A stretch of DNA of 56,899 bases from positions 1 through 56,899 of the IMG/VR virus record IMGVR_UViG_3300010400_000024; one strand, given 5' to 3'. This stretch comes from a virus. Lineage: Duplodnaviria > Caudoviricetes. Below the pieces are notes generated by a model. It was not told where the DNA came from. It saw nothing but the letters and a program-made list of their open reading frames with translations, and did no database searches. Positions 1,446-56,785 of this stretch are shown here, piece by piece. The position numbers were made by a program, and so were the translations under genes. Every line of letters begins with the position of its first letter. Position 1 is the stretch's first letter.

Positions 1446-3059
1446 ATGAGCGCACTACCACTTAATAAACCAACGCCTGATAGAGTCATTGAGACTCCTG
1501 AATGGCAAATGCAGGATATTGATTATCTTGCATCTAAGCCCTATTCAGCCAATTGGTCTGAAATGGGTTGTTACAAGACTTCTACTGCTTTGTGGCTAGC
1601 GATGCGTAAGGTGCAAGGCATTGAAAATCCCTCCATCTTGTTTATCACTACTGCTGGTGGTAAAGGCACTTACTTTGATATGGTGCCTGAGATTCTCCCG
1701 AACTACACTTTGTTTAACGTTGGGACTCAGGGCATTAGTATTGTCCTTCCTGGCGGTAAGCAAGTTAAGGTGCAGAAGGAACTTCCTGACAGAATTGACG
1801 TTCCTCATATCATCTTGACACACTACCAAGTTTTCGCACGATGGAATCATAACAAGCTTGACCCTTGTATTGACTGTGAAGTGACAGGCATACAAAAGGT
1901 ACCAGGGATGGACTTGGAGATTATCTGTCCTACGTGTAATGGTGCCATGTTTGTCAAGAAGCCTCTGCTTATGGCAGACTACTTGAACAAGCATGAATGG
2001 GACTTTGTCGGTGTTGACGAGGCACATAGACTTAAGGGTAGAGAGACTAAATGGACGGTTGGCATCAAAAGGTTGAAGGCCAAGCATAAGCACATTATGA
2101 CTGGTACTGGCTTTATCAATCGTCCTGATGAAATCTGGTCTTTGCTTGACTTCCTAGCTAAAGGCCAGGATATGAACTTCGGCTCTTACAATCGCTTCGT
2201 GGAATACTTCTGCGAGATTGACGATTGGAGTGGCTATCGCAAGGTTGTGGGGGTTAAGGAAGATAAGAAGGACGAGTTTAGAACACTCGTTAGAGAGTAT
2301 GGAGTTAGGCGCACTCTCGATGAAGTAATGCCCCACATCAAGAAGGCGATTAAGGTTCGTAAAGATGTTGAGCTTTCAACGGTACAGAAGCGTATGTACA
2401 ATGAGATTAAGACTGAGTTAAAAGCACTCGATAAGAAGGGTGAACCATTCCACTCACCTAACGTCTTGTCTGCACTACAGAGGTTGCGGCAGATTTGTGT
2501 CGCCACTCCTGAAGTAGTAAAAGACGAGTACGATGAAAAGCTTGAGAAGCGTGTAATGAAGATCAAGCTGGTAGAGCCATCAAGTAAGCTAGACGAGTTG
2601 ATGGAACTAATCGACGGTATGGAGTGGGATGATGATAACAGGCAACAACTAGTGGTCTTTAGTAACTTCCGTGATCCGCTGGAACTACTGAAGGTAAGAC
2701 TAGAGAAGGCTAATATCCCTTACATTCATATGGATACGAGTGATGATGAAGAGACTAGATACAAGAAGTGGCATGATGAGTTTCCGAAGAAGGAACATCA
2801 AATCTTCATGTCAACTCTCCAATTGGGTGGAGAAAGTATTAATCTCACCAGTGCCCAACACGTTTGCTTCCTTGATAGGTCTTGGAGTCCCAAAGACAAC
2901 AATCAGGGTATTGGTAGAGTTAGACGCCCTGGACAATCGGGTGAGCCAGTTGTTATCAATATTGAAGCAAAGGGAACTACAGATCAGAAGCTAGAGAGGG
3001 TTAACGCAGAGAAGGAAGGTTGGTTCAATGAAATCTTCGGTGACGAAGATGAGATTTAA
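1446..3059 (+). CDS. SNF2-family (SF2) helicase
   Basis: EMGCYKT Walker A variant, VDEAH, MTGT, motif V GGESINL, motif VI QGIGRVRRPGQ. Confidence 0.9.
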   Translation: MSALPLNKPTPDRVIETPEWQMQDIDYLASKPYSANWSEMGCYKTSTALWLAMRKVQGIENPSILFITTAGGKGTYFDMVPEILPNYTLFNVGTQGISIVLPGGKQVKVQKELPDRIDVPHIILTHYQVFARWNHNKLDPCIDCEVTGIQKVPGMDLEIICPTCNGAMFVKKPLLMADYLNKHEWDFVGVDEAHRLKGRETKWTVGIKRLKAKHKHIMTGTGFINRPDEIWSLLDFLAKGQDMNFGSYNRFVEYFCEIDDWSGYRKVVGVKEDKKDEFRTLVREYGVRRTLDEVMPHIKKAIKVRKDVELSTVQKRMYNEIKTELKALDKKGEPFHSPNVLSALQRLRQICVATPEVVKDEYDEKLEKRVMKIKLVEPSSKLDELMELIDGMEWDDDNRQQLVVFSNFRDPLELLKVRLEKANIPYIHMDTSDDEETRYKKWHDEFPKKEHQIFMSTLQLGGESINLTSAQHVCFLDRSWSPKDNNQGIGRVRRPGQSGEPVVINIEAKGTTDQKLERVNAEKEGWFNEIFGDEDEI

Positions 3060-3726: not shown

Positions 3727-3920
3727 TGCACATCAACGATCACCCCGACCACGATCATCGTTACATGAAGTGGTGTGAACACTTGAACGTACAAGAAATT
3801 TCTACGTTCGGTCAAGGCGTAACGCACTACATCTGTGAGGATTGTGGAGCCACTTGTCTTATAGGACAAGCCGAAAACTGGATGCCTAATCTAACAGGCA
3901 CACGAATACAGGAGAGTTAA
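3720..3920 (+). CDS. hypothetical protein with putative zinc ribbon
   Basis: CEH...CEDCG. Confidence 0.5.
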   Translation: MLMHINDHPDHDHRYMKWCEHLNVQEISTFGQGVTHYICEDCGATCLIGQAENWMPNLTGTRIQES

Positions 3921-4164: not shown

Positions 4165-5472
4165 ATGAGTACAACAACTAATGAAATAGTCATCCCTAGT
4201 AAGTGGGATATCATACCCATTCATACTAGCGATAGAGAAACGTTTAAGAACTGTCGTCGTAGATGGGACTGGTCAAGTCCTGCTAGACGTAACTTGGTAC
4301 GCAAGGTTAGAGTTAGTGGCGTGATTATGCCGCTATGGTTTGGTACAGGAATTCACGTTGGATTGCAACGTTACTACAATCCTGTATTGAGTGAAGACCC
4401 TGTTAAAGTTTTTGAAGATTGGTACAACACTGAGTGGAATGGTGGTTACGTTCATTACAACGATCTAGATCAATACGCTGATCGTGACCCTAAGCCTCAT
4501 GGTATTGAACAATACTATGACGTAAACACAGGAATGTTCGTACCCGCTATGTGGTTCGTTAAGGGTCTAAGTGAACTTCTGCCTGATCCCGATGAAGAAC
4601 TGTTTGAAGAGCATAGGGTATTGGGGATTGGTATGCTCACCTTCTACAAGGACTACGCTAAACGTGAAGATAACTTCCGTGTAGTTAGTGTTGAGCAGAC
4701 ATTCAGTGTACCTATCCGTGATCCTAATGGTGAGATTGTTAAGATGGTAGATAGTAGGCGTATGCCTAAAGAGTGGATAAGTGATAAGCCTGCTGCTTAT
4801 CTAGGTATGCCGAAGGAAGTACATGCTAGAGGTAGGCGCGATGCTATCGTTCAGGACAATGAGACTGGTAAGTACGGTATTATTGACCATAAGACGGCAG
4901 CTAAGATTAACGATGACTACTTTAGGCATCTAGACTTGGATGAACAATGCACTACATATTTGTGGACTGGTGAGGAAGAAGCAAAGATTTACGATCGAGA
5001 GTGGAAATCACTTGACTTCATTATCTACAATGCTTTGCGGAAGAACTTTCCTAAACCCCCCACAATGCTTAAGAAGGGTACGCCTAGTCTCGATAAGACT
5101 AAGGAAAGCCCTACTGCTGAAATGTTTATGAAGTGCATTAAGGACAATGGGTTGGAAATGGTGTTAGAAGGTTCTGAGCAAATGCAGAACTACTACACCT
5201 ATTTGTTGGAGCAAGGTGACAAGCTATTCATTCAACGTGGTGCGCCTGGATTGCCCTATGTTACTCGTAACAAGGCACAGAGGGCTAATGCTGGTAGAAG
5301 GCTGTACTACGAAGCGATGGATATGCTCTACAATCCTAACATCTATCCTAACCCAACTAAGAACTACAGTTGCTTGAACTGCATCTTTAGGGCACCTTGC
5401 TTGATGGCAGAAGATGGTAGCGACTACGAAGCTATGCTAGAAGATAGCTATCAGGCTAACTATGATCGTTAA
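4165..5472 (+). CDS. PD-(D/E)XK RecB/Cas4-like exonuclease
   Basis: FKNCRRRW, FGTGIH, VEQTF, GRRDAIV, IIDHKT, C-terminal CLNCIFRAPC. Confidence 0.85.
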   Translation: MSTTTNEIVIPSKWDIIPIHTSDRETFKNCRRRWDWSSPARRNLVRKVRVSGVIMPLWFGTGIHVGLQRYYNPVLSEDPVKVFEDWYNTEWNGGYVHYNDLDQYADRDPKPHGIEQYYDVNTGMFVPAMWFVKGLSELLPDPDEELFEEHRVLGIGMLTFYKDYAKREDNFRVVSVEQTFSVPIRDPNGEIVKMVDSRRMPKEWISDKPAAYLGMPKEVHARGRRDAIVQDNETGKYGIIDHKTAAKINDDYFRHLDLDEQCTTYLWTGEEEAKIYDREWKSLDFIIYNALRKNFPKPPTMLKKGTPSLDKTKESPTAEMFMKCIKDNGLEMVLEGSEQMQNYYTYLLEQGDKLFIQRGAPGLPYVTRNKAQRANAGRRLYYEAMDMLYNPNIYPNPTKNYSCLNCIFRAPCLMAEDGSDYEAMLEDSYQANYDR

Positions 5473-5967: not shown

Positions 5968-6121
5968 CCGAGGAAGTTTATACCGATGGTGATTTGTTGG
6001 CTCAGATAGAAGCTGAAAGTGAAACAGCTATAAGCCTTGGAATGATTAACCATCCCTCTACCGTTAAAGTTCTGCTTGAAGGATTTATTAGAAAGATTGA
6101 AAAGCAGCGTAATGGCATTAA

Positions 6122-6373
6122 GTGGTGGGAAGAATGACTAGTGTACCCCTAGACGTTAATGCGATCAAGGCACTACTTGGTAATGATGAGAAGAAGCGTC
6201 AACTACCTCCGCAAGTAGGGCCGATCAAGTGGTACGATAAGGAAATGCGTTGTGCTAGTAGAGGGTGTGGTAGTCCAACGTACATTAAGTTTCAAGGCAT
6301 ACCTAACTGCATGATACATACGCTTAGACTTGCTAACGAATTGATGGTGGAACATGAAATCGGTACTAGCTAG
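6122..6373 (+). CDS. hypothetical protein (CxxxxC ... CxxH)
   Basis: ORF in operon; start may be ATG 6135-6137. Confidence 0.55.
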   Translation: MVGRMTSVPLDVNAIKALLGNDEKKRQLPPQVGPIKWYDKEMRCASRGCGSPTYIKFQGIPNCMIHTLRLANELMVEHEIGTS

Positions 6374-6575: not shown

Positions 6576-7384
6576 TCGAAGCAGCAACCGTACCGCCTGC
6601 GGCTGATAGTATCCGTGATAAGTTGCAGGTTCAATCTCCCGAGGACGTTGTTCCGTACATTAACCTGCTTATCTATGGTGAGCCGGGTGCGGGTAAAACG
6701 TTTTTCTGCTCAACTGCACAGGATATCGAAGAAACGAAACCTATCTTGTTTGTTGACGTAGAAGGGGGAGTGCTTACAATCCGAAAGAGGCCAGATATCG
6801 ACGTTAAGGCCGTTAGAAGTATCAAGGACGTTGAAGATGTGCATAACATGATCTTCAAAGACCCTTCTTATTATCGAACGGTAATCGTAGATAGTCTGTC
6901 TGAGTTGCAGAAGCTCGATATGAGATTCGTGATGAATCATGAGAAGCAAAATTCTTCTAATCCTGATCGTGTTGATATCGACACTCCAACGCAGAGAGCA
7001 TGGGGTAAGTCAGGAGAACGTATTAGAAGGATTGTTCGCGCGTTCAGAGACTTGCCTTGTAACACGATTATGACAACGTTGGTCAGTACGGAGTACGAAG
7101 AAGATGATAAGGGTAAAGAGGATAAGAGCAAAGTTCGTTTGTTCTATCCTATGCTCCCTGGTAAACTCCGTGGTGAGATACCGGGCTATTTCGATGTTGT
7201 AGGTTTCTTGCAAGCTGACGCGGATAGGTCAGGTAATATCAAGCGAACTCTCCAAGTTGCAAAGACAAAGAGAGTGGTTGCTAAGGATCGTACCGGAAGT
7301 CTCGGTTTGGTTGTTAATGAACCTTCAATACCGATAATATGGAATATGATTCATAGTGACGAAAAGGTCATGAGCAGTACCTAA
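6575..7384 (+). CDS. Sak4-like / AAA_24 ATPase (ssDNA-annealing recombinase); start ATC 6575 or TTG 6623
   Basis: LIYGEPGAGKT Walker A, VDVEGG, VIVDSLSELQ Walker B, AKDR; adjacent to exonuclease and SSB. Confidence 0.85.
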   Translation: MEAATVPPAADSIRDKLQVQSPEDVVPYINLLIYGEPGAGKTFFCSTAQDIEETKPILFVDVEGGVLTIRKRPDIDVKAVRSIKDVEDVHNMIFKDPSYYRTVIVDSLSELQKLDMRFVMNHEKQNSSNPDRVDIDTPTQRAWGKSGERIRRIVRAFRDLPCNTIMTTLVSTEYEEDDKGKEDKSKVRLFYPMLPGKLRGEIPGYFDVVGFLQADADRSGNIKRTLQVAKTKRVVAKDRTGSLGLVVNEPSIPIIWNMIHSDEKVMSST

Positions 7385-7398
7385 CTTAAGGAGTTACT

Positions 7399-7905
7399 TT
7401 GTCTGACGATACAATGGGGCCACTCGATCTTTCAGGTGCCGATCTTACTGGCTTTGACCCTGTACCATCAGGTCAGTATAAGGTAGAGGTGTTTGAGTTC
7501 AAGCCCGTTAAGATTGACAAGGAAGATGGTAAGCTTCCCGAAGGTACACCCGGCTATGCAGTTCAGCTTAAGGTAGTCGGTGATACCGAAGGCGCAGAAG
7601 GTGAGGACTACGAGTATTTCAATCGTAGAGTGTTTACTCGCTTCTACCTTCCCGGTGGAGATTACGATAAGAGTAAGGCCGCTCGTATGAAGGGAATGTT
7701 CGTTAAGTTCCTTCTCGCTGTCGGTTACGATGAAGCCGAAGTAACGGGTGGAGCGTTCTCTGTTGATCCTGATGATGTTGTTGATCGTGAGTGCGTTGCT
7801 ACTCTTGGCATTCAGCCTGAACAGGGTGGCTATCCTGCACAGAATAAGGTCAACAGCTTTAAGTCGCTACAGGAGGTTGCTGCTAGTAGCTCAGGGTTGA
7901 TCTAA
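7399..7905 (+). CDS. DUF669-like single-stranded DNA-binding protein
   Basis: FDPVPSGQYKVEV N-terminus, NKVNSF C-terminus, acidic; follows Sak4-like gene; AAGGAG RBS. Confidence 0.7.
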   Translation: MSDDTMGPLDLSGADLTGFDPVPSGQYKVEVFEFKPVKIDKEDGKLPEGTPGYAVQLKVVGDTEGAEGEDYEYFNRRVFTRFYLPGGDYDKSKAARMKGMFVKFLLAVGYDEAEVTGGAFSVDPDDVVDRECVATLGIQPEQGGYPAQNKVNSFKSLQEVAASSSGLI

Positions 7906-8009: not shown

Positions 8010-10205
8010 ATGACAATATCCACACCAGACAGAGCGATTAGAACGCAGTTCTTCGATTATCTCTTTGGTAATGCCGAAGGCTACCTATGCATAGCTACAC
8101 AACCGTCCAATGATAAGAAGCTTTTTAGGCAACACTTCTTTCACTGGCCTAACGAGAGAGAAAAACTTTCAGCTTTCCTTACAGAAAATGTAAGAAGAAA
8201 GAACGTATGGTTCTGTACTTCTCTTCTTACCAAGGAAGAACGTAAGAAAGAGTTTTGCCAACCTAGCAATCTTTTGTGGTCAGACTTGGATGCTTGCAAC
8301 CCGAAGATTGTAGAGCCTGCGCCTTCTTGTGTTATAGAGTCCTCTCCGTTGAGGTATCAAGCATTGTGGAGATTGGATAAACAACTTGAGCCTTTCCAGC
8401 AAGAGGACTATAACAAAAGAATAGCGTACAAATACAGTAGTAATGGCGCTGATCCTTCCGGCTGGGACTTAACACAGTTGTTAAGAGTCCCATTGACGTT
8501 CAACTATAAGTATGAACAGGAAGGTGTAGACGTACCTGAAGTTAAGCTTCTTCAGAGCTTAGAGGTACTAGTGCCCTCAGTCCTTTTTAGTGGTATCGAG
8601 AAGCCAGAGATTAAAGGCGAGCCTGATGACGTACCCTTGCCTGACATTGATAAGCTGCCTTCTGCCGATACGATCATCTACAAGTATATCCACAACTTGA
8701 GACGTACTGCGTTCTCAACGTTGTATACTGTTACGCCAGAAGCAGATGTAGATTGGTCAGCTATCCTATGGCGGCTGATTATGATCTGCATGGAAGCTGG
8801 TATGTCTAATGAGGAAGCTTTCGTTGTTGCCATCGACAGCGCGTGTAACAAGTACGCTAGGGATAACCGTCCTGTCAATCATCTTTGGCAGGATATCTTA
8901 AGGGCAGATGTTAGTCAGAAAAGGCTAACGCTTATAACGAAGCAATTTGACACACTGGTCATGCCAGAGCTAATCAGTGAGTCTGAGTATAACAATCTCG
9001 GCAAGGATTTCATTGACGAGTACAAAGATTGGGCACTTGAAGCTACTGATGCTGTGGAGCAGTACCATGAGTTAAGCGCCGCAATATTGCTATCAAGTGT
9101 AATCGCTGGTGGAGTGATGCTAGACACAAGTTATGGTGAAATGGTACCTAACCTTTGGGGGTTGGTTCTAGGTGATAGTACGCTTACGAGAAAAACTACG
9201 GCTATGCGTATGGCGATGGATATTGTCACTGACGTTGAGCGCGATATCATACTCGCAACTGACGGTAGCGCAGAAGGATTGCTTACGGGACTTAGCCAAC
9301 GCCCTCATCAAACCTCAATTTTCTACAAGGATGAAGTAAGTGGTTTTATTGATAGCATCAACAAGAAGGACTATCTGGCTGGTATGCCGGAAACCCTCAC
9401 TCAACTATACGATGTACCTAGACTTTACACTAGACGCCTCAGGAAAGAAACTATCGTTATCACAAGTCCGGTCTTTATCTTCTTTGGAGGCGGGATTAGA
9501 GATAAAGTCTATAGTCTCTTATCGGACGAGTATGTCCTATCGGGGTTCCTTCCTCGGTTTCTCGTTGTATCGGGCGAAGCCGATATTGGGCGTATTAGGA
9601 GGACTGGCCCTGCTACCACGGGTACGAATGAAAAACGTGCCAATCTTGTGGAAAAGATGAGATATCTTTATCAGCAGTATTCCGGTGTTACTACGATGGA
9701 AGTTGCTGGACAGTCAGTTGATATAGCGAAGCATGTTAACGCTAGACTTAGTGAGAAGGCTTGGGAACGTTATGGCAATATAGAGATGGCGATGGTCAAA
9801 GCTGCTAGTGAGTCACAAATCTCTATGATGGCACTACCAACCTTTGAACGTATGTCGAGAAGTCTTTTGAAGCTCTCGGTGTTAATTGCCGCGAGTAAAC
9901 GTGAGCCTGTTAACAACGAACTCGTTGTTGAATACAAGGAAGTGGCTAAAGCTGCTTACTACATTCAACGTTGGGGAGGCCATACTATCGACCTGCTCCA
10001 CAACTCCGGGAAAGGTATGGTGGAACGGACTATCGAGAAAATCCTTCGTACTATCCAAAAGCATCCAGATATCACTAGGAGTAAAGTGATGCAGTATCAC
10101 CATCTAACATCTAGAGAGGCGAACGATATCCTTACTACGCTTGATGACAGGGGAATGATTCACATGACTAAAGAAGGTCGCGGCATAAGGCTAAGAGCAG
10201 TATGA
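8010..10205 (+). CDS. RepB-like primase fused to DUF3987-like helicase domain
   Basis: LWSDLD, IESSPLRYQALW, LLRVP in N-terminus; VLGDSTLTRKTT, KDEVSG, SGFLPRF in C-terminus; terminal wHTH. Confidence 0.8.
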   Translation: MTISTPDRAIRTQFFDYLFGNAEGYLCIATQPSNDKKLFRQHFFHWPNEREKLSAFLTENVRRKNVWFCTSLLTKEERKKEFCQPSNLLWSDLDACNPKIVEPAPSCVIESSPLRYQALWRLDKQLEPFQQEDYNKRIAYKYSSNGADPSGWDLTQLLRVPLTFNYKYEQEGVDVPEVKLLQSLEVLVPSVLFSGIEKPEIKGEPDDVPLPDIDKLPSADTIIYKYIHNLRRTAFSTLYTVTPEADVDWSAILWRLIMICMEAGMSNEEAFVVAIDSACNKYARDNRPVNHLWQDILRADVSQKRLTLITKQFDTLVMPELISESEYNNLGKDFIDEYKDWALEATDAVEQYHELSAAILLSSVIAGGVMLDTSYGEMVPNLWGLVLGDSTLTRKTTAMRMAMDIVTDVERDIILATDGSAEGLLTGLSQRPHQTSIFYKDEVSGFIDSINKKDYLAGMPETLTQLYDVPRLYTRRLRKETIVITSPVFIFFGGGIRDKVYSLLSDEYVLSGFLPRFLVVSGEADIGRIRRTGPATTGTNEKRANLVEKMRYLYQQYSGVTTMEVAGQSVDIAKHVNARLSEKAWERYGNIEMAMVKAASESQISMMALPTFERMSRSLLKLSVLIAASKREPVNNELVVEYKEVAKAAYYIQRWGGHTIDLLHNSGKGMVERTIEKILRTIQKHPDITRSKVMQYHHLTSREANDILTTLDDRGMIHMTKEGRGIRLRAV

Positions 10206-11195: not shown

Positions 11196-13531
11196 TGATG
11201 CGTAAACACCCACTAGCTAAGTGCGAAGAGTGCCCACTAGCTAAGAAGAAGATCGCTCCTACTAGTGGGCCTAAAGATGCTAAGTATGCGTTGGTTAGTC
11301 GTAGCCCTGGTAGGCACGATGTTAGTGATGGTTATCCATTTGCCGGCCCTAGTGGTAGAGTAGTTGATTACCTGCTTAAACAGAATGGACTTAAACGTGA
11401 AGAGATTATCACCACAAATGTCGTTTTATGTGAAACAGATGATCCACCTAAGGAAGCAATCGCAGCTTGCAAAGATCGTCTTACAAGTGAACTGCAAGCC
11501 GTTTCTACAATCATTGCAGCAGGCGCAGAAGCAGTTAAACTATTTACAGGCAAGACGATCGACAACGCTCGAGGTTTTGCTAACGAGCGTAACGGTAAGC
11601 GTATCATTGCTACTAACAATCCTGCACTAGTACTTCGTGATGCAGATAGCTTCCCTAATCTAGTAAAGGACTTTAAACGTGCGATCAACCCTCTTCCAAG
11701 GCCGGTACTTCCGAAGGTCACAATTATCCGCAACGTTGCACAAGCACAGAAGCTCCTTAAAGATTTGGTTGATAATCCGCCACCCTTACTTGCAGCAGAT
11801 ATCGAAGCAAGAGGCGGAACTTCTCATAGAGCTGAACTCGCGTGTATTGGATTCTCTGCAACTGGAGAAAGAGCACTCGTCTTTGGAGCAGAGGTTATCG
11901 GGGATTCAGCATGTTTTGAATTGCTCAAAACACTTCTTGAATCCAGAACAACTAAGTTCATATGGCACTTCGGAAAATACGACGTAAAGGCGTTGAGGTT
12001 TAATGAAATCAATGCTAGAATTGATCACGATAGTTACGCGCTTAGTATCGCCTGTGATGAAAGACCTGGTGTGCATAGTCTTGAGTATATGCTTATGGAT
12101 GAATTTGGTTGGCCTGATTACGAGCCTGAGTCAGTCAAGAAATTTAAAACGACAGGACAGATAAATGACCTCAATGAACTTTTCGAATACAACGGCTGGG
12201 ACGTTGCCGGAACCATGCAACTCTTCACTATGTTGCAACGCAGGGCTAAAGAGGACAAAGTCTATGAACTGTACGAAAATCACCTACTCCCTATCTATAG
12301 ATCATTCGTGGATATTGAGCTTCGTGGTTTTCATTACGACGTAGAAGAAGCTGCTAATCTCAGAGAAGCATATGTTATCCCTAAACTTTGGGAACTCAGG
12401 GATAAGCTTAGGCAAGTTGTAGGTCATGAGGGTTATAATCCTAACTCACCTAAGCAATCAGAAACGATCATTTATGATGAGTTGGGTCTTAAGCATCAGA
12501 TCAAGACGATGATGCAGGTTGACAAAACCCGCTCCACAGACCACTACATTCGGCTTGAAGTTATTGATGGTAGATTCAAGTGTAACCCTGGTAAGAGGGA
12601 GAAGCTTGTTGATTGGGCTACCAACATGGAGGTCTACAGCAAGATCAATAAGCAGAAAGGAACTTACATTGAAGGACTCATCCGTAAAGCTCTTGACGAT
12701 GGGAAAATCTACACAAGCTTCAAATTTGGAGCCGTCACTGGACGTACATCTAGTGAAAAACCGAATATTCAGAACATTACGCGGTCAGGGCATCATGGTA
12801 TCCCTTCCATGCGAACCCTCTTTAAGCCTAGTCCCGGTAACGTCATCGTTCAGGCCGATTACTCACAAGCAGAGCTAAGGTGTATCGCAAAGTTTAGTGG
12901 TGATCCTGAGTTGAACGCGATCTACATGGACAGCAGTAGAAGTCTGCATAAGGAACAGGCTCTAAGATTCTATGGAGAGGGTTATACCAAAGATCAGTAC
13001 GTGTACGCTAAGAGTATGAACTTCGGTATAACCTATGGTCAGGGGCCTGAGTTGTTTAGAGACTTGTACCAAGTACCTGTAGAAGATGCTGAAGGATACA
13101 TTGCTGCTTGGTGGGAACGATTCCCTGTTATCCTTGAATGGGTTGAAATGGTCAAGCAACAAGTAAAGACAGGGGTGGTGATAAACCCGTATGGACGAAA
13201 GCGAAGATTCCAGCTTATCACAAGAGAGAACAAATCAGCAGTTGAAAGACAAGCTGTTGATTTCCTACCACAATCTACTGCAAGCGACTTCACACTCGAA
13301 GCCGTTGTTGAACTCAACAAGCGTGGAGTACCAATCGTCGCGTCGGTACATGACAGTATCGTTGCAGATGTACCGGAGGATGAAGCGTATGATGTGGGGA
13401 GGATGATGAAGGAGGTTATGGAGCCTATACCTCGTAATCGTTTTGGATGGGAACTACCATTCCTCGTAGACGTAAGCATAGGTGAAAGTTGGGGAACAGT
13501 CGAAGAAGTAGAATTGGAGGTAGCTGCTTAG
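11195..13531 (+). CDS. polA: family A DNA polymerase with N-terminal family-4 UDG-like domain and 3'-5' exonuclease
   Basis: CEECPL..PFAGPSG..TNVVLC UDG-like; ADIE exo I; TGRTSS, ADYSQAELR (motif A), AKSMNFGITYG (B), VHDSIV (C). Confidence 0.95.
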   Translation: MMRKHPLAKCEECPLAKKKIAPTSGPKDAKYALVSRSPGRHDVSDGYPFAGPSGRVVDYLLKQNGLKREEIITTNVVLCETDDPPKEAIAACKDRLTSELQAVSTIIAAGAEAVKLFTGKTIDNARGFANERNGKRIIATNNPALVLRDADSFPNLVKDFKRAINPLPRPVLPKVTIIRNVAQAQKLLKDLVDNPPPLLAADIEARGGTSHRAELACIGFSATGERALVFGAEVIGDSACFELLKTLLESRTTKFIWHFGKYDVKALRFNEINARIDHDSYALSIACDERPGVHSLEYMLMDEFGWPDYEPESVKKFKTTGQINDLNELFEYNGWDVAGTMQLFTMLQRRAKEDKVYELYENHLLPIYRSFVDIELRGFHYDVEEAANLREAYVIPKLWELRDKLRQVVGHEGYNPNSPKQSETIIYDELGLKHQIKTMMQVDKTRSTDHYIRLEVIDGRFKCNPGKREKLVDWATNMEVYSKINKQKGTYIEGLIRKALDDGKIYTSFKFGAVTGRTSSEKPNIQNITRSGHHGIPSMRTLFKPSPGNVIVQADYSQAELRCIAKFSGDPELNAIYMDSSRSLHKEQALRFYGEGYTKDQYVYAKSMNFGITYGQGPELFRDLYQVPVEDAEGYIAAWWERFPVILEWVEMVKQQVKTGVVINPYGRKRRFQLITRENKSAVERQAVDFLPQSTASDFTLEAVVELNKRGVPIVASVHDSIVADVPEDEAYDVGRMMKEVMEPIPRNRFGWELPFLVDVSIGESWGTVEEVELEVAA

Positions 13532-44109: not shown

Positions 44110-44664
44110 TTAACCAGCTTTCAGCGTAGGCGTAACCTTCTCCGTATCACCGTTAGCAAACGTCCTCAATGCTGCTGTGTCACCAGCACAATACAACTGA
44201 CCAGCATTTAGTGTAGAACCGTCCGTAAGCACCCAACTATTCGCACCGTTCGGGTTAGGCGCCCCCGAGAATGCACCAAACGTCGTCTGATCTGATGTAG
44301 CTGACTGACCACCAGTAGAGAACGTGTTATCGAACGTCGAAGCAAGCCAGTCAATAGCGCCCTGTGCAATCGACTTAGCGATTGTCTGCCTTGCGTACCC
44401 TGACGCAGTAGTCGAACCAATCTCGTTAACGTTGCTTCCTGAGACTGTAGCACTCCACACTGAGTTACGGGCCATGTTAGAACCAGACCCCACAACTGTC
44501 GTACTCAACGCGAGTGTCCACGATGCAGGCGGTGTAATCGTGCCTGAAGCACCAAGCACGTAGTCCGTTACAAGCTGACTAAGCCTCTGGAACGCAATAA
44601 CAGCATTCTTCTCAGCATGTGCAGGAACTTCTGGTTCATACCTGTGATGTTCATGCATAAACAT
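44110..44664 (-). CDS. putative virion structural protein
   Basis: LALSTT, NEIG...GYARQTI, RTFANGDT pattern of phage fibre-base proteins. Confidence 0.55.
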   Translation of the reverse strand: MFMHEHHRYEPEVPAHAEKNAVIAFQRLSQLVTDYVLGASGTITPPASWTLALSTTVVGSGSNMARNSVWSATVSGSNVNEIGSTTASGYARQTIAKSIAQGAIDWLASTFDNTFSTGGQSATSDQTTFGAFSGAPNPNGANSWVLTDGSTLNAGQLYCAGDTAALRTFANGDTEKVTPTLKAG

Positions 44665-47364: not shown

Positions 47365-47411
47365 GTAGTCTGCATAATGATCCAACTCGTAGGGATCATT
47401 AGGAAGTCTAC

Positions 47412-47936: not shown

Positions 47937-47953
47937 CGCAACAAGGCAAGGCT

Positions 47954-48059
47954 TTAGTTAGCTTGCCTAGAGTAGTAAGGCTATAGGTATGGGAGTTTCT
48001 CTACAACCCTAACTCCCTCAGTGTAGAGTATGCCTTACTACTCTAGGAAGGCTAACTAA
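47954..48059 (+). ncRNA. stem cassette 1 enclosing an H-type pseudoknot
   Basis: 28-bp stem with one G.A mismatch; inner GGGAGTT/AACTCCC; loop CTCTACA pairs with TGTAGAG. Confidence 0.75.
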
Positions 48060-48068
48060 GGAGGAATA

Positions 48069-48553: not shown

Positions 48554-48759
48554 GTGGAGTTATCGACACCGACGGCACACAGTGGGAACGTTGTAACGGT
48601 TGCGGTGAGTTCGTGAACATGGACGACTTGCGCTACGAGCAGCCGAGTGAGAAGTTTAAGTACGGTAGGGACTTGTGCATTAAGTGTATTACTGAGACAA
48701 GCATAGCCGTTAAAAAATCCTACTTGACAGATAAGGGTTTACGTGCTATGCTTCTCTAA
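48550..48759 (+). CDS. zinc-finger hypothetical protein
   Basis: CNGC...CIKC. Confidence 0.55.
   Translation: MSGVIDTDGTQWERCNGCGEFVNMDDLRYEQPSEKFKYGRDLCIKCITETSIAVKKSYLTDKGLRAMLL
48724..48752 (+). promoter_or_regulatory. early promoter
   Basis: TTGACA-N17-TATGCT with TG extension. Confidence 0.8.
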
Positions 48760-48785: not shown

Positions 48786-49025
48786 ATGCAGGGAGTATAC
48801 GTAAGAGCTAGAAGGGTAGCAACTAAGAAGGCACTAAAAGAGGCAGTTGCGGAGAACTCGCACGTTGTCGCACTTGAGGCTACTAGCCTCTTTGGTAACG
48901 AGTACGACGGCTTCCTGTTTCAGGCACCTAACGGAGTTTACAACGTTGTCGGGCCTTGTCCTCACACAAACAGGAAGTGGTACGCAACGATCACAGTGAA
49001 GGATGGCGACGTTAAAGTCAAATAG
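48786..49025 (+). CDS. hypothetical protein
   Basis: GGGAGGT RBS. Confidence 0.65.
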   Translation: MQGVYVRARRVATKKALKEAVAENSHVVALEATSLFGNEYDGFLFQAPNGVYNVVGPCPHTNRKWYATITVKDGDVKVK

Positions 49026-49101
49026 CACTCACAGGCATAAGTGGGTGGTCACTAGAAAGGTAAGAAACACTGACCACCCACTTATCCGTAAGTGTGAGTG
49101 C
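49025..49101 (+). ncRNA. long hairpin at the start of RNA cluster 1
   Basis: GCACTCACA/TGTGAGTGC plus ATAAGTGGGTGGTCA/TGACCACCCACTTAT. Confidence 0.6.
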
Positions 49102-49140
49102 GGCGCGATTCAAAGACACCATAGAGGTAGATGGACAAGT

Positions 49141-49251
49141 TAGCTTGCATAGACTGTAGAGCGCATACCGAGCGAAAGGTGGCACTCATGGAGAGTTGGC
49201 AAAGTCAAGGGGTTCGATTCCCTCCACATTCTCTACAGTCTATGGAGGCTA
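49141..49251 (+). ncRNA. stem cassette 2 enclosing a mini tRNA-like RNA
   Basis: 21-bp stem TAGCTTGCATAGACTGTAGAG/CTCTACAGTCTATGGAGGCTA with G.G; GGGG-TTCGATT-CCCT T-arm. Confidence 0.75.
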
Positions 49252-49266
49252 GTTAGTCTCTATAAA

Positions 49267-49333
49267 AGAGAAAGTGCGAAAGCGTCGAGAGCTAGGAAAT
49301 CTCGGGGTGTATGGGCCTAGACACACTTTCTCT
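49267..49333 (+). ncRNA. multi-branch RNA with kissing loops
   Basis: AGAGAAAGTG/CACTTTCTCT; loops containing CTAGG and CCTAG. Confidence 0.6.
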
Positions 49334-49405
49334 AACAACATAATAGCTCACAGTTAAAGGAGGATAATAGCATCGGGTAAGGCTATTATCGTGCAGACGT
49401 TTTAC

Positions 49406-49566
49406 TAGTCTGCATAAGCTAGTAGGAGCAATTGCATAATAGGACAACAGTATAAAGCCTGCTCTGTCCCGGTAATGGTGAAGCAAACTACCGTAAAAGC
49501 CAGACGGTGTAAGTTGGTAGTTGAAAAGCCGTCATACCTTGCCGTCCTACTAGCTTATGGAGACTA
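49406..49566 (+). ncRNA. stem cassette 3 (~117-nt structured cargo)
   Basis: 22-bp stem TAGTCTGCATAAGCTAGTAGGA/TCCTACTAGCTTATGGAGACTA with G.G. Confidence 0.75.
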
Positions 49567-49587
49567 ATGAAAGGAGGTTAACGAAAA

Positions 49588-49713
49588 ATGGATAATAGAA
49601 ACCGTAATAACTCATGGGACGCAATTTGGCAGGATGCAGGTAAAGGCTTTAGATGGTTCTGCGGTATCCTGTTGTTTGTACTGTTCATGCATTCATGTGC
49701 AGGTGTAGGCTAA
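49588..49713 (+). CDS. small membrane peptide (41 aa) between RNA cassettes
   Basis: AAGGAGG RBS; MDNRNRNNSWDAIWQDAGKGFRWFCGILLFVLFMHSCAGVG. Confidence 0.65.
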   Translation: MDNRNRNNSWDAIWQDAGKGFRWFCGILLFVLFMHSCAGVG

Positions 49714-49865
49714 CTAGTCTGCATAAGCTAACGGGTGATATAGGAACGATAAGCGGGGCGAAAGCCTAGAATCTAGTGTCACTACACACTGGACGTGAAT
49801 CGTTCGCCGGTAGTGCGGAAAGAGGGTAATACGTACCCTCCATCCGTTAGCTTATGGAGGCTAGT
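49713..49865 (+). ncRNA. stem cassette 4 enclosing a kissing-loop RNA
   Basis: 25-bp stem with G.G; loops CACTAC and GTAGTG complementary; GAAA tetraloop. Confidence 0.8.
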
Positions 49866-49869
49866 AAAA

Positions 49870-49919
49870 CCTAGTGCTTAAGTGGGCCAGCCCATTAAAG
49901 GGTCAACACTTGTACTAGG
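49870..49919 (+). ncRNA. hairpin following cassette 4
   Basis: CCTAGTGC..AAGTG/CACTT-GTACTAGG. Confidence 0.45.
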
Positions 49920-49982
49920 ACGCATGGATGGCGATAAGCTAGCCTCCAAGAACTTTAATCACACACAAGCAGGAGAGTTGCT

Positions 49983-50225
49983 ATGATAGACCTATGCGAC
50001 AGAAACCACGAAGGACTTGTGGTGAAGTTGTGGTATCAAGAACCCGACGAAATCACTATTACCGTTAGGGACGAAAGGAACGGTGAGAACTTTGCACTCG
50101 AAGTTGATCCGAGAGATGCTCTCGACGCGTACTACCACCCCTTTGCTTACAGAGATAGAGAGGCAAGAGTTGGTGTACTGGCCGAAGGTGATGCTAAGCG
50201 CAACAACGGCGATTGCCTGCCGTAA
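49983..50225 (+). CDS. hypothetical protein
   Basis: AGGAG RBS; ALDAYYHPFAY. Confidence 0.7.
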   Translation: MIDLCDRNHEGLVVKLWYQEPDEITITVRDERNGENFALEVDPRDALDAYYHPFAYRDREARVGVLAEGDAKRNNGDCLP

Positions 50226-56679: not shown

Positions 56680-56785
56680 GTTAATGTTGCTTAGACTCCC
56701 TACTCTACACTTTGACCCTAAAGGGCTTGCGGCTAATAGGGATGAGATGGCGCATAGTGTAGAAGGGAGTCTAAGGAACATTAAC
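56680..56785 (+). ncRNA. stem cassette 6
   Basis: GTTAATGTTGCTTAGACTCCCT..TCTACACT / AGTGTAGA-AGGGAGTCTAAGGAACATTAAC with G.G. Confidence 0.75.

Follow-up and report, generated by a model that had tools for sequence, protein, structure and literature searches.

A previously uncatalogued structured RNA with covarying kissing loops in uncultivated soil phages

Positions 49738 to 49840 on the plus strand of the virus record IMGVR_UViG_3300010400_000024 (56,899 nucleotides (nt), analysed over its whole length and hereafter called the window) contain two neighbouring hairpins whose six-nucleotide loops are complementary to each other. The locus raises the question whether this complementarity has been selected, either as part of a tertiary fold or for multimerisation as in the phi29 packaging RNA (pRNA), both of which had been proposed in the initial annotation, and what kind of RNA would carry it. 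The element is a previously uncatalogued structured RNA of soil phages with covarying kissing loops. About 25 relatives were found, in uncultivated phages, and 49713-49865 of the window (plus strand) is probably the gene for a small, stable, structured phage RNA belonging to an undescribed family.

Fold of the RNA and covariation of its loops

The sequence strings named in the initial annotation were all found where it had placed them, and the loop of the second hairpin (L3, GUAGUG) is the exact reverse complement of that of the first (L2, CACUAC), a match with a chance of 1/4096 for two given loops of 6 nt. The helices of the 103-nt RNA proposed there were as described, but the unit is larger: 49738-49840 forms the core of a unit of 153 nt (49713-49865, plus strand), in which it is enclosed by a stalk of 24 base pairs (bp). 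The unit is a four-way junction of the stalk (P1), P2 with P2a, P3 and P4. The minimum free energy structure predicted for the core with RNAfold consisted of exactly these helices (−39.7 kcal/mol; shuffle mean −24.7 kcal/mol; z = −5.2), and none of 200 dinucleotide shuffles folded as well. With the flanking stem (49710-49868) the energy was −80.1 kcal/mol (z = −10.3), again with 0/200 shuffles as good. In the stalk, 49713-49737 pairs with 49841-49865, with a single G·G mismatch (G49721/G49857). The parts of the unit, with the joining strands denoted J, are as follows.

49713-49720, plus strand: lower stalk 5' arm, ACUAGUCU, pairing with 49858-49865
49721, plus strand: 5' G of the constant G·G stalk mismatch, opposite G49857
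49722-49737, plus strand: upper stalk 5' arm, CAUAAGCUAACGGGUG, pairing with 49841-49856
49738-49743, plus strand: J1/2, AUAUAG, an A/U-rich joining strand present in all family members
49744-49750, plus strand: P2 5' strand, GAACGAU (family consensus GGGCGA), pairing with 49799-49805
49753-49767, plus strand: insertion peculiar to the window copy, in which GCG (49753-49755) pairs with CGU (49794-49796) and a GNRA hairpin follows
49756-49767, plus strand: the GNRA hairpin, GGGC-GAAA-GCCU, part of the window-only insertion
49772-49793, plus strand: P2a hairpin, arms UCUAGUGU (49772-49779) and ACACUGGA (49786-49793), L2 CACUAC (49780-49785)
49799-49805, plus strand: P2 3' strand, AUCGUUC, following the GAA that is conserved in the A-rich internal loop
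49806, plus strand: J2/3, a single purine (G)
49807-49818, plus strand: P3 hairpin, CCG/CGG, L3 GUAGUG (49810-49815)
49819-49821, plus strand: J3/4, AAA
49822-49840, plus strand: P4 hairpin, GAGGGUA-AUACG-UACCCUC (arms 49822-49828 and 49834-49840), with no linker to the stalk
49841-49865, plus strand: stalk 3' arm, comprising the upper arm (49841-49856), mismatch G49857 and the lower arm AGGCUAGU (49858-49865)

Neither the GCG/CGU pairing nor the GNRA hairpin of the insertion occurs in other members. The extra hairpin at 49756-49767 reads GGGGCGAAAG, resembles the family P2 consensus GGGGCGACAAAG and misleads aligners; judged from its letters, it may be a partial internal duplication. Contigs from three DNA sequencing runs, compared over 48900-50000, contained no variants within 49738-49840. 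No RNA run was among the sequencing runs listed for this phage.

Members of the family, whose loci are denoted here by L and three digits, were collected with two sequence patterns and three small covariance models (R1, R2 and R3); divergent members will have been missed, since the lists rest on these patterns and models, and the E-values of the models are rough. R1, modelled on the window unit by itself, matched L174 (42.8 bits) and L165 (30.9 bits) in a search of 39 sources, and L176 (52.5 bits, E 5.6e-11) in one of 80 metagenome loci. R2, built from L176, L174 and the window, scored L165, which had been left out, at 52.2 bits (E 4e-9) and also picked up L172/L173. R3 was built from nine distant members only, with neither the window nor its close relatives, and recovered the close relatives L176, L174 and L165 at 41, 37 and 31 bits. 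Its sole match in the whole window was 49747-49839, with a weak score (21.7 bits, E about 1e-3 in a 0.88-Mb search) that is modest because the extra GNRA hairpin (49753-49767) disturbs the alignment.

The matches of R1 and R2 all share the helix GGGCGA...UCGUCC. Scanning IMG/VR for this helix with a gap of 5-35 nt yielded 17 stretches, the majority of which are clearly this RNA, and the variant GGAAUGA...UCAUUC gave 52, several of them real. The helix pattern also matched 120 stretches in 185,579 bacterial genomes, about the chance estimate, among which only L381, a 3-kb phage-like contig of a metagenome-assembled genome, looks real. Two copies of the RNA were present in each of three phages:

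L173, minus strand: 3818-3906 and 4691-4761
L271, plus strand: 7371-7463 and 7778-7868
L417, minus strand: 1165-1264 and 2487-2570

If the loop complementarity were fortuitous, it should be lost in homologs, and this was the outcome that the initial annotation had named as refuting it. It was kept through compensatory change, as the following fully complementary loop pairs illustrate.

Window: L2 CACUAC, L3 GUAGUG
L176: L2 CGCUAC, L3 GUAGCG
L172a: L2 UUGCAG, L3 CUGCAA
L172b, L257 and L259: L2 CUGCAA, L3 UUGCAG
L256: L2 CUUCCC, L3 GGGAAG
L261: L2 GUGGGA, L3 UCCCAC
L267: L2 CUGGCA, L3 UGCCAG
L271b: L2 CGUUAC, L3 GUAACG
L381: L2 CUGCCA, L3 UGGCAG
L402: L2 GUGCAU, L3 AUGCAC
L417a: L2 ACCCGA, L3 UCGGGU
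L417b: L2 CCCGAA, L3 UUCGGG
L429: L2 CUGACA, L3 UGUCAG

At least six contiguous Watson-Crick pairs between L2 and L3 were present in 15 of the 28 candidates, with 13 different L2 hexamers. A partial match was seen in five more: L165 (6 bp, one of them G-U), L271a, L266 and L425 (5 bp each) and L174 (4 bp, plus two across a bulged A). The loops of L417b, of the bulged cases and of L165 were read by eye. In a permutation test with 16 members, the L2 region was compared with the 18 nt after P2 of its own (cognate) or of another RNA; exact duplicates were left out, as were L258, L260 and L272, which are without family features (runs of 4, 3 and 4). The longest Watson-Crick run averaged 5.69 in the 16 cognate cases and was at least 6 in 11 of them, compared with a mean of 3.93 in 240 non-cognate pairs, where 17 reached 6 or more, mostly among members sharing CUGCAA/UUGCAG. 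Neither the cognate mean nor the cognate count was reached in any of 20,000 permutations. The second, independent pattern scan yielded the new members L402, L417a and L429, all with 6-7 bp, as does L417b. Among the 120 pattern matches in bacterial genomes, which are chance matches, a run of at least 6 occurred in 10.

Since compensatory evolution keeps L2 and L3 complementary over about 6 bp, the loop-loop (kissing) helix is under selection, and the earlier proposal that the complementarity is selected, for a tertiary fold or for multimerisation, gains support from the homologs. On this comparative evidence the element is very likely a real, selected structured RNA with a selected L2:L3 pairing.

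The helices evolve in the same manner. Across the family, P1 ranges from 8 to about 35 bp and is followed by an A/U-rich J1/2 of 6-10 nt. P2 has 6-7 bp (consensus GGGCGA/UCGUCC) with a conserved G-U pair and leads into an internal loop, YAA(A)...(C)AAA. Most members then have P2a, usually a hairpin of 8-10 bp capped by L2, which L172a and L266 lack. J2/3 is one purine (G in 15 of 16 members, A in L174), P3 has 3-5 bp and closes an L3 of about 6 nt, AAA is the usual J3/4, and the P4 hairpin abuts P1 directly. In 12 members, 96.3% of the P2 and P3 positions were paired, compared with 82.8 ± 2.4% in shuffles (0/500 reaching the observed value), and shifting the partners by 1-3 columns lowered pairing to 33-47%. 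All three P3 pairs had changes on both sides, and P2 contained G-C to A-U and C-G to U-A exchanges. The conserved P2 G-U pair was present in 10 of the 12 members, and the plus strand is therefore the folded strand. RNAalifold recovered P2 and P3 unaided, and in alignment A5 18 of 47 pairs were compensatory; MAFFT misaligned L165, which was left out of alignments A5 and A7, and the window copy, which was left out of A7 and A8. The window copy itself has the features of the family: a P2 of GAACGA/UCGUUC (with the G-U pair or its compensated variant), the 1-nt J2/3 (G49806) and a P3 of CCG/CGG.

Rfam 15 gave no match in the whole window at the gathering score, and at E up to 10 only five chance-level matches to unrelated families in 48950-50000, none of them on the element. 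Seven loci with other members, searched at E up to 1, and L381, searched at E up to 10, gave nothing relevant. The Rfam comparison suggested in the initial annotation thus gave no match for any scanned member, and the RNA is uncatalogued. ARAGORN identified no genes for transfer RNA (tRNA) or transfer-messenger RNA (tmRNA) in the window. The family is not described in the titles and abstracts listed in literature searches on phage structured RNAs, RNase III processing and phage small RNAs.

The stalk module and its genomic setting

The initial annotation had named the core 'cargo 4', and the window bears out the idea of a cargo, since a conserved flanking stem carries different inserts. The stalk 16-mer UAGUCUGCAUAAGCUA and its partner arm recur at 49404-49568 and 49713-49865. 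With up to three mismatches, the 16-mer matched five times in the window, compared with 0.64 matches expected, and four of the five are both arms of these two neighbouring units. The fifth match, at 12940, lies inside the DNA polymerase gene, where two loose stalk-arm matches with three mismatches (12940-12955 and 13412-13427, plus strand) are 470 nt apart and most likely due to chance. An inverted-repeat scan of 44-56.9 kb found seven stems of the stalk type, all on the plus strand (at 47365, 47954, 49026, 49134, 49400, 49713 and 56677), and none in 1-44 kb. Five of the seven share one layout, with a lower stem of 6-13 bp, one mismatch with a 5' G, and an upper stem of 12-16 bp, and enclose inserts of about 50-115 nt which are entirely different from one another. 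In this lineage the stalk has about 25 bp, with the constant G·G mismatch 8-9 bp above its base, and on the early strand stalks of this type enclose six or more different cargos. Besides the unit described above, the stems are:

49404-49568, plus strand: neighbouring unit that shares the stalk sequence but carries another cargo, of about 115 nt (motif and inverted-repeat scans)
49138-49254, plus strand: unit with a tRNA-type T-arm, GGGGUUCGAUUCCCUC, in its cargo, in which ARAGORN finds no tRNA or tmRNA
47952-48061, plus strand: unit with G·A at the mismatch position and another cargo (inverted-repeat scan)
56680-56785, plus strand: unit (G·G) with another cargo (inverted-repeat scan)
47365-47411, plus strand: variant, a short hairpin with stalk-like sequence GUAGUCUGCAUAAUG... 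(inverted-repeat scan)
49026-49096, plus strand: variant stalk, a long hairpin with the related motif GCAUAAG/CUUAU (inverted-repeat scan)

The cargos at 49404-49568, 47952-48061 and 56680-56785 have strong folds (z −5.4 to −8.3) and are mutually unrelated. For the cargo at 49138-49254, Rfam gives only a 13-nt match to a tmRNA fragment.

In related phages, collected via a 184-amino-acid protein and the DNA polymerase, stems of the same type occur on the corresponding strand; their arms differ in sequence yet stay paired, that is, they covary, and the mismatch is kept. When long stems with any 1x1 mismatch were scanned without bias, the mismatch was G·G in 17 of 35 non-redundant stems on the early strand, compared with 2 of 23 on the other strand. 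L176 carries four stalk units head to tail, and its order is that of the window: small hydrophobic open reading frame (ORF), homolog of the core (cargo 4), further unit, a short box and a homolog of the 80-amino-acid ORF that follows the array. In IMG/VR the exact 16-mer occurred in 27 stretches, all in coding-looking DNA and none with the partner arm, and a two-arm stalk pattern gave 36 stretches, none with a paired inner stem; the stalk sequence is therefore private to this lineage.

The record is a nearly complete (97%) virus genome of 56.9 kb. Its plus strand encodes a family-A DNA polymerase (PolA), an SNF2 helicase and a primase-helicase in 1-15.6 kb, and the minus strand the siphovirus structural genes, including a Mu-like portal, adjoined by the presumed terminase, a prohead protease and the siphovirus tail. 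The RNA units lie in a block of small plus-strand ORFs at 46-56.9 kb. This block contains five strong sigma-70-like promoter matches (46660, 47412, 47528, 47649 and 48724; consensus matches only), in which TTGACA is perfect, the spacer measures 17 nt and the −10 box is mostly extended by TG. The three terminator-like matches are all upstream of 46.8 kb, with none in the RNA cluster or between it and the promoter match at 48724. Two features flank the units described here:

48724-48752, plus strand: nearest promoter match upstream of the RNA cluster (TTGACA, 17 nt, TATGCT, with TG; consensus match only)
49939-49948, plus strand: the box, CUAGCCUCCA, complementary over all its 10 nt to the 3' lower stalk arm UGGAGGCUAG (49855-49864)

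The box, as CUAGCCUCCA(AGAA), also follows the RNA array in L176 (minus strand, about 6100-6170). Its complementarity suggests that it may form an alternative helix with the stalk arm or act on the GGAGG of that arm.

No relative of the region 48900-50000 was found at the DNA level with the 'distant' setting of blastn among 50,697 phage records, and DNA comparison with five related records gave only a 16-nt T-loop match (in a tRNA cluster) and a 14-nt chance match. Pfam and PHROGs searches with 39 window proteins, covering part of the ORFs, recognised nothing related to RNA. The promoter matches, together with strong AGGAGG ribosome-binding sites, point to a host with classical sigma-70/sigma-A and Shine-Dalgarno usage. 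A hydrophobic ORF of 41 amino acids (49588-49713, plus strand) with a strong AAGGAGG ribosome-binding site and no PHROGs match is located between two of the RNA units, and a similar small hydrophobic ORF (26 amino acids) precedes the cargo-4 homolog in L176. The 184-amino-acid protein (44113-44664, minus strand) belongs to no Pfam family, is 57-86% identical across the 35 viral and 80 metagenome loci kept, and is the best marker of the phage group. The 80-amino-acid ORF downstream of the array had no relative in an IMG/VR protein search, and at none of the 65 loci found with a 79-amino-acid upstream protein was the stalk motif present.

Proposed processing, pairing and alternative explanations

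The reading preferred here is that the units would be transcribed from host-type early promoters within a polycistronic RNA and excised at the stalk, most likely by RNase III. In the RNA so released, the kissing helix would lock P2a against P3 and give a compact, nuclease-resistant particle acting in trans, with a role tied to the world of tRNA and tmRNA, or as a protein decoy. Such roles are suggested by the position of the RNA in other phages, where 7 of 19 loci have tRNA or tmRNA genes close to it and on the same strand. In L395 the RNA (2600-2681, plus strand) starts at the very end of a tmRNA gene (2206-2603, plus strand; ARAGORN), L271 has an ARAGORN tmRNA gene (9572-9886, plus strand) near its family RNA, and in L425 and L429 the RNA is about 45-60 nt from tRNA-Met. 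The contexts from which it would be excised thus differ between phages, being a G·G stalk, tRNA or tmRNA neighbours, or P1 with a U-tract (L381), and an RNA embedded in such differing contexts fits a stable molecule of the phage 'stable RNA' cluster that acts in trans.

RNase III needs about two turns of double-stranded RNA, and the stalks provide about two turns (at least 20 bp) of mostly regular helix, made up of a lower stem of 6-13 bp, one mismatch and an upper stem of 10-16 bp. Processing stems of this kind are known from the early-RNA sites of T7 and from the stalks of ribosomal RNA (rRNA), and the early-RNA sites of SP82 are reportedly cleaved by the RNase III of B. subtilis. Because a stem of 20-26 bp repeats along a putative early operon without terminator-like sites, the stalk has the look of an RNase III substrate. 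It would be a module for processing or stability, and by analogy we tentatively regard it as a possible processing site for this enzyme.

Whether the loops pair within one molecule or between molecules is a separate matter, since covariation is blind to the difference, and an intramolecular lock and head-to-tail multimers are both compatible with it. From the dimensions of the predicted helices we lean slightly towards intramolecular pairing: P2a (8-10 bp) is about as long as P2 and P3 together (9-11 bp), so that L2 would reach L3 if the RNA folded back at its A-rich internal loop, which is conserved. The alternative, that the L2 of each molecule binds the L3 of its neighbour to form head-to-tail dimers, closed rings or filaments with the stalks pointing outwards, seems rather unlikely to us, although the L2:L3 covariation is equally expected for partners in trans. 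In ROOL and GOLLD, kissing loops that covariation had at first suggested to be tertiary contacts turned out to bridge separate molecules (PMC12286853). The short junction strands (J2/3 of 1 nt, J4/1 of 0 nt) suggest coaxial P2/P3 and P1/P4 stacks with L2 and L3 at opposite ends of a rod, the arms are very unequal (P2a from 0 to about 10 bp, P3 3-5 bp), and 6-nt loops in which every nucleotide is paired offer little room for a tight turn within one molecule. Three phages also have two copies, and those of L173 carry one hexamer pair swapped between L2 and L3, so that they could pair mutually. Against pairing in trans stand the P2a length, which in most members is close to that of P2 plus P3, as a fold-back contact needs, the orthogonal loop pairs of the two L271 copies, and the ordinary Mu-like portal; with a presumed terminase beside this portal, a packaging role of the pRNA type is not expected. 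Extended by analogy, pairing in trans would make the RNA the protomer of a natural multimer, with rings or filaments from which the stalks radiate, released from a modular stalk-cargo array by an RNase III-type G·G stem, a proposal that we regard as doubtful.

Several points weigh against the preferred reading, in which a processed RNA is locked by an intramolecular contact. Such a contact needs, on geometric reasoning from the model, a sharp fold-back at the P2 internal loop and a tolerance of unequal arms, and intermolecular pairing fits at least as well: in most members the 6-nt loops are fully paired, P2a reaches about 8-10 bp and P3 has just 3 bp, and two members are without P2a. No convincing L2:L3 match was seen in 8 of the 28 candidates, namely L263, L394 (4 bp), L395, L414, L439 and the doubtful pattern hits L258, L260 and L272. 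Transcription, RNA ends and cleavage are all inferred from the sequence. It is equally possible that the G·G mismatch serves as an anti-determinant and keeps RNase III from cleaving. No RNase III, RNA ligase or RNA-binding protein was recognised among the 39 phage proteins scanned, and no protein family accompanies the RNA, the best shared neighbour being present in 4 of 14 loci and adjacent in only two.

This variability of the neighbourhood bears also on the possibility that the RNA is a cis-acting leader, that is, a riboswitch-like aptamer or a translational or attenuation switch for the downstream gene. The short P1 of L381 (8 bp), followed directly by U8 and then an ORF, would suit a leader, as would the 80-amino-acid ORF homolog after the array in the window and in L176, preceded by the box that could form an alternative helix with the 3' stalk arm. 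Loops kissing beside a multi-way junction, as L2 and L3 would, are the architecture of purine riboswitches. We nevertheless consider a leader improbable: a stalk of about 25 bp is no switchable P1, the downstream genes vary among members, the tandem arrays hold unrelated cargos, the RNA is found after tmRNA and beside tRNAs and in two copies per genome, and the junction strands are A/U-rich yet unconserved in sequence, unlike a ligand pocket. A self-cleaving ribozyme that processes the early transcript is less probable still. Small ribozymes are common in phage genomes and often combine a multi-way junction with a loop-loop contact, and the element would lie within a polycistronic RNA that requires processing, but no ribozyme of Rfam 15 matched even at E up to 10, and the conserved nucleotides are in the P2 helix and the internal loop, not in the junction core. 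Moreover, the stalk is common to unrelated cargos, which argues for a processing enzyme acting in trans. That the element is not an RNA at all, and represents a repeat at the DNA level (a miniature mobile element, or a hairpin for recombination or replication) or a chance palindrome, is hardly credible. The shared inverted repeats around different inserts do resemble terminal inverted repeats, and the elements are clustered; however, the helices contain strand-specific G-U pairs, one of them kept in 10 of 12 members, covariation of the helices and of the pseudoknot extends over phages without DNA similarity, all units are on the presumably transcribed strand, the exact-motif scans of IMG/VR show no dispersed copies, and no transposase or recombinase was found nearby among the proteins scanned.

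Relation to known RNAs and significance

The pRNA of phi29 is the most obvious comparison. It is an early-transcribed phage RNA of 120-170 nt, in which a long helix formed by the ends leads to a multi-way junction with covarying complementary loops, and phi29-like phages have a small genome and a protein-primed family-B polymerase. The window RNA likewise has an end-formed helix, a junction and two mutually complementary loops; it differs in its four-way junction (three-way in pRNA), in the 6 bp of its loop complement (4 bp in pRNA) and in the presence of two copies in some phages. Membership of the pRNA family (RF00044) is not supported: Rfam gave no match in the window at the gathering score, pRNA was absent from the five matches at E up to 10 in 48950-50000, and the 56.9-kb genome, with its family-A polymerase, Mu-like portal, prohead protease and siphovirus tail, is not that of a phi29-like podovirus.

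The stalks resemble RNase III stems such as the T7 R sites and those of SP82 and rRNA in being long, imperfect stems of 20-26 bp in what would be polycistronic early RNA, repeated along the operon, and, as in the rRNA stalks, the stem is formed by sequences flanking a structured RNA, which the rRNA stem thereby releases. Unlike known RNase III stems, they enclose interchangeable structured cargos and have a constant single G·G instead of an internal loop, and their cleavage is predicted. ROOL, GOLLD and OLE are likewise structured RNAs, often associated with phages or prophages, with covarying kissing loops, some of which form quaternary bridges (PMC12286853). They are 5-8 times larger than the present RNA and show no relationship to it in sequence or structure; Rfam gave no match here, and none of them is described as part of a stalk-cargo arrangement. 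With purine riboswitches the RNA shares a loop-loop helix between neighbouring hairpins of a multi-way junction. The riboswitch loops are conserved in sequence, whereas those of the present RNA covary freely; its P1 has 25 bp, the location is mostly not a 5' untranslated region, and there is no Rfam match.

Species 1 and 2 of T4 (rnaC and rnaD) are, as the RNA described here would be, small stable phage RNAs, situated in a tRNA cluster (NC_000866 annotation), and rnaC carries a T-arm, as does the cargo at 49138-49254. Homology with rnaC and rnaD was rejected, the best score of R3 over the T4 tRNA region with filters off being 6.1 bits, and the likeness is one of analogy only. Bacterial Y RNAs, including YrlA, have a long end-formed stem with a conserved irregularity and a structured module, tRNA-like in YrlA, and the stalk-plus-tRNA-like layout of the 49138-49254 unit recalls YrlA. 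In contrast to the Y RNAs, no unit had an Rfam match; the phage proteins that were scanned, a part of the ORFs, included no recognised Ro/TROVE protein.

Structured phage RNAs whose shape is known but whose function is not are rare, and they have repeatedly opened new biology, as with pRNA and the cages of ROOL and GOLLD. The present RNA, with about 100 nt and a clean, freely covarying loop-loop helix of 6 bp, is compact enough for structural and biochemical work. If the multimer reading were true, a quaternary RNA like pRNA or ROOL would exist in ordinary siphophages of the terminase type, and the array would be a universal excision cassette for at least six unrelated RNAs, a phage counterpart of polycistronic pri-miRNA (primary microRNA) clusters. 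The shared G·G stalk suggests a general route by which phages could place several unrelated small RNAs in one early operon and then release them; should this be confirmed, the stalk would offer a practical mark by which to look for more phage RNA genes.

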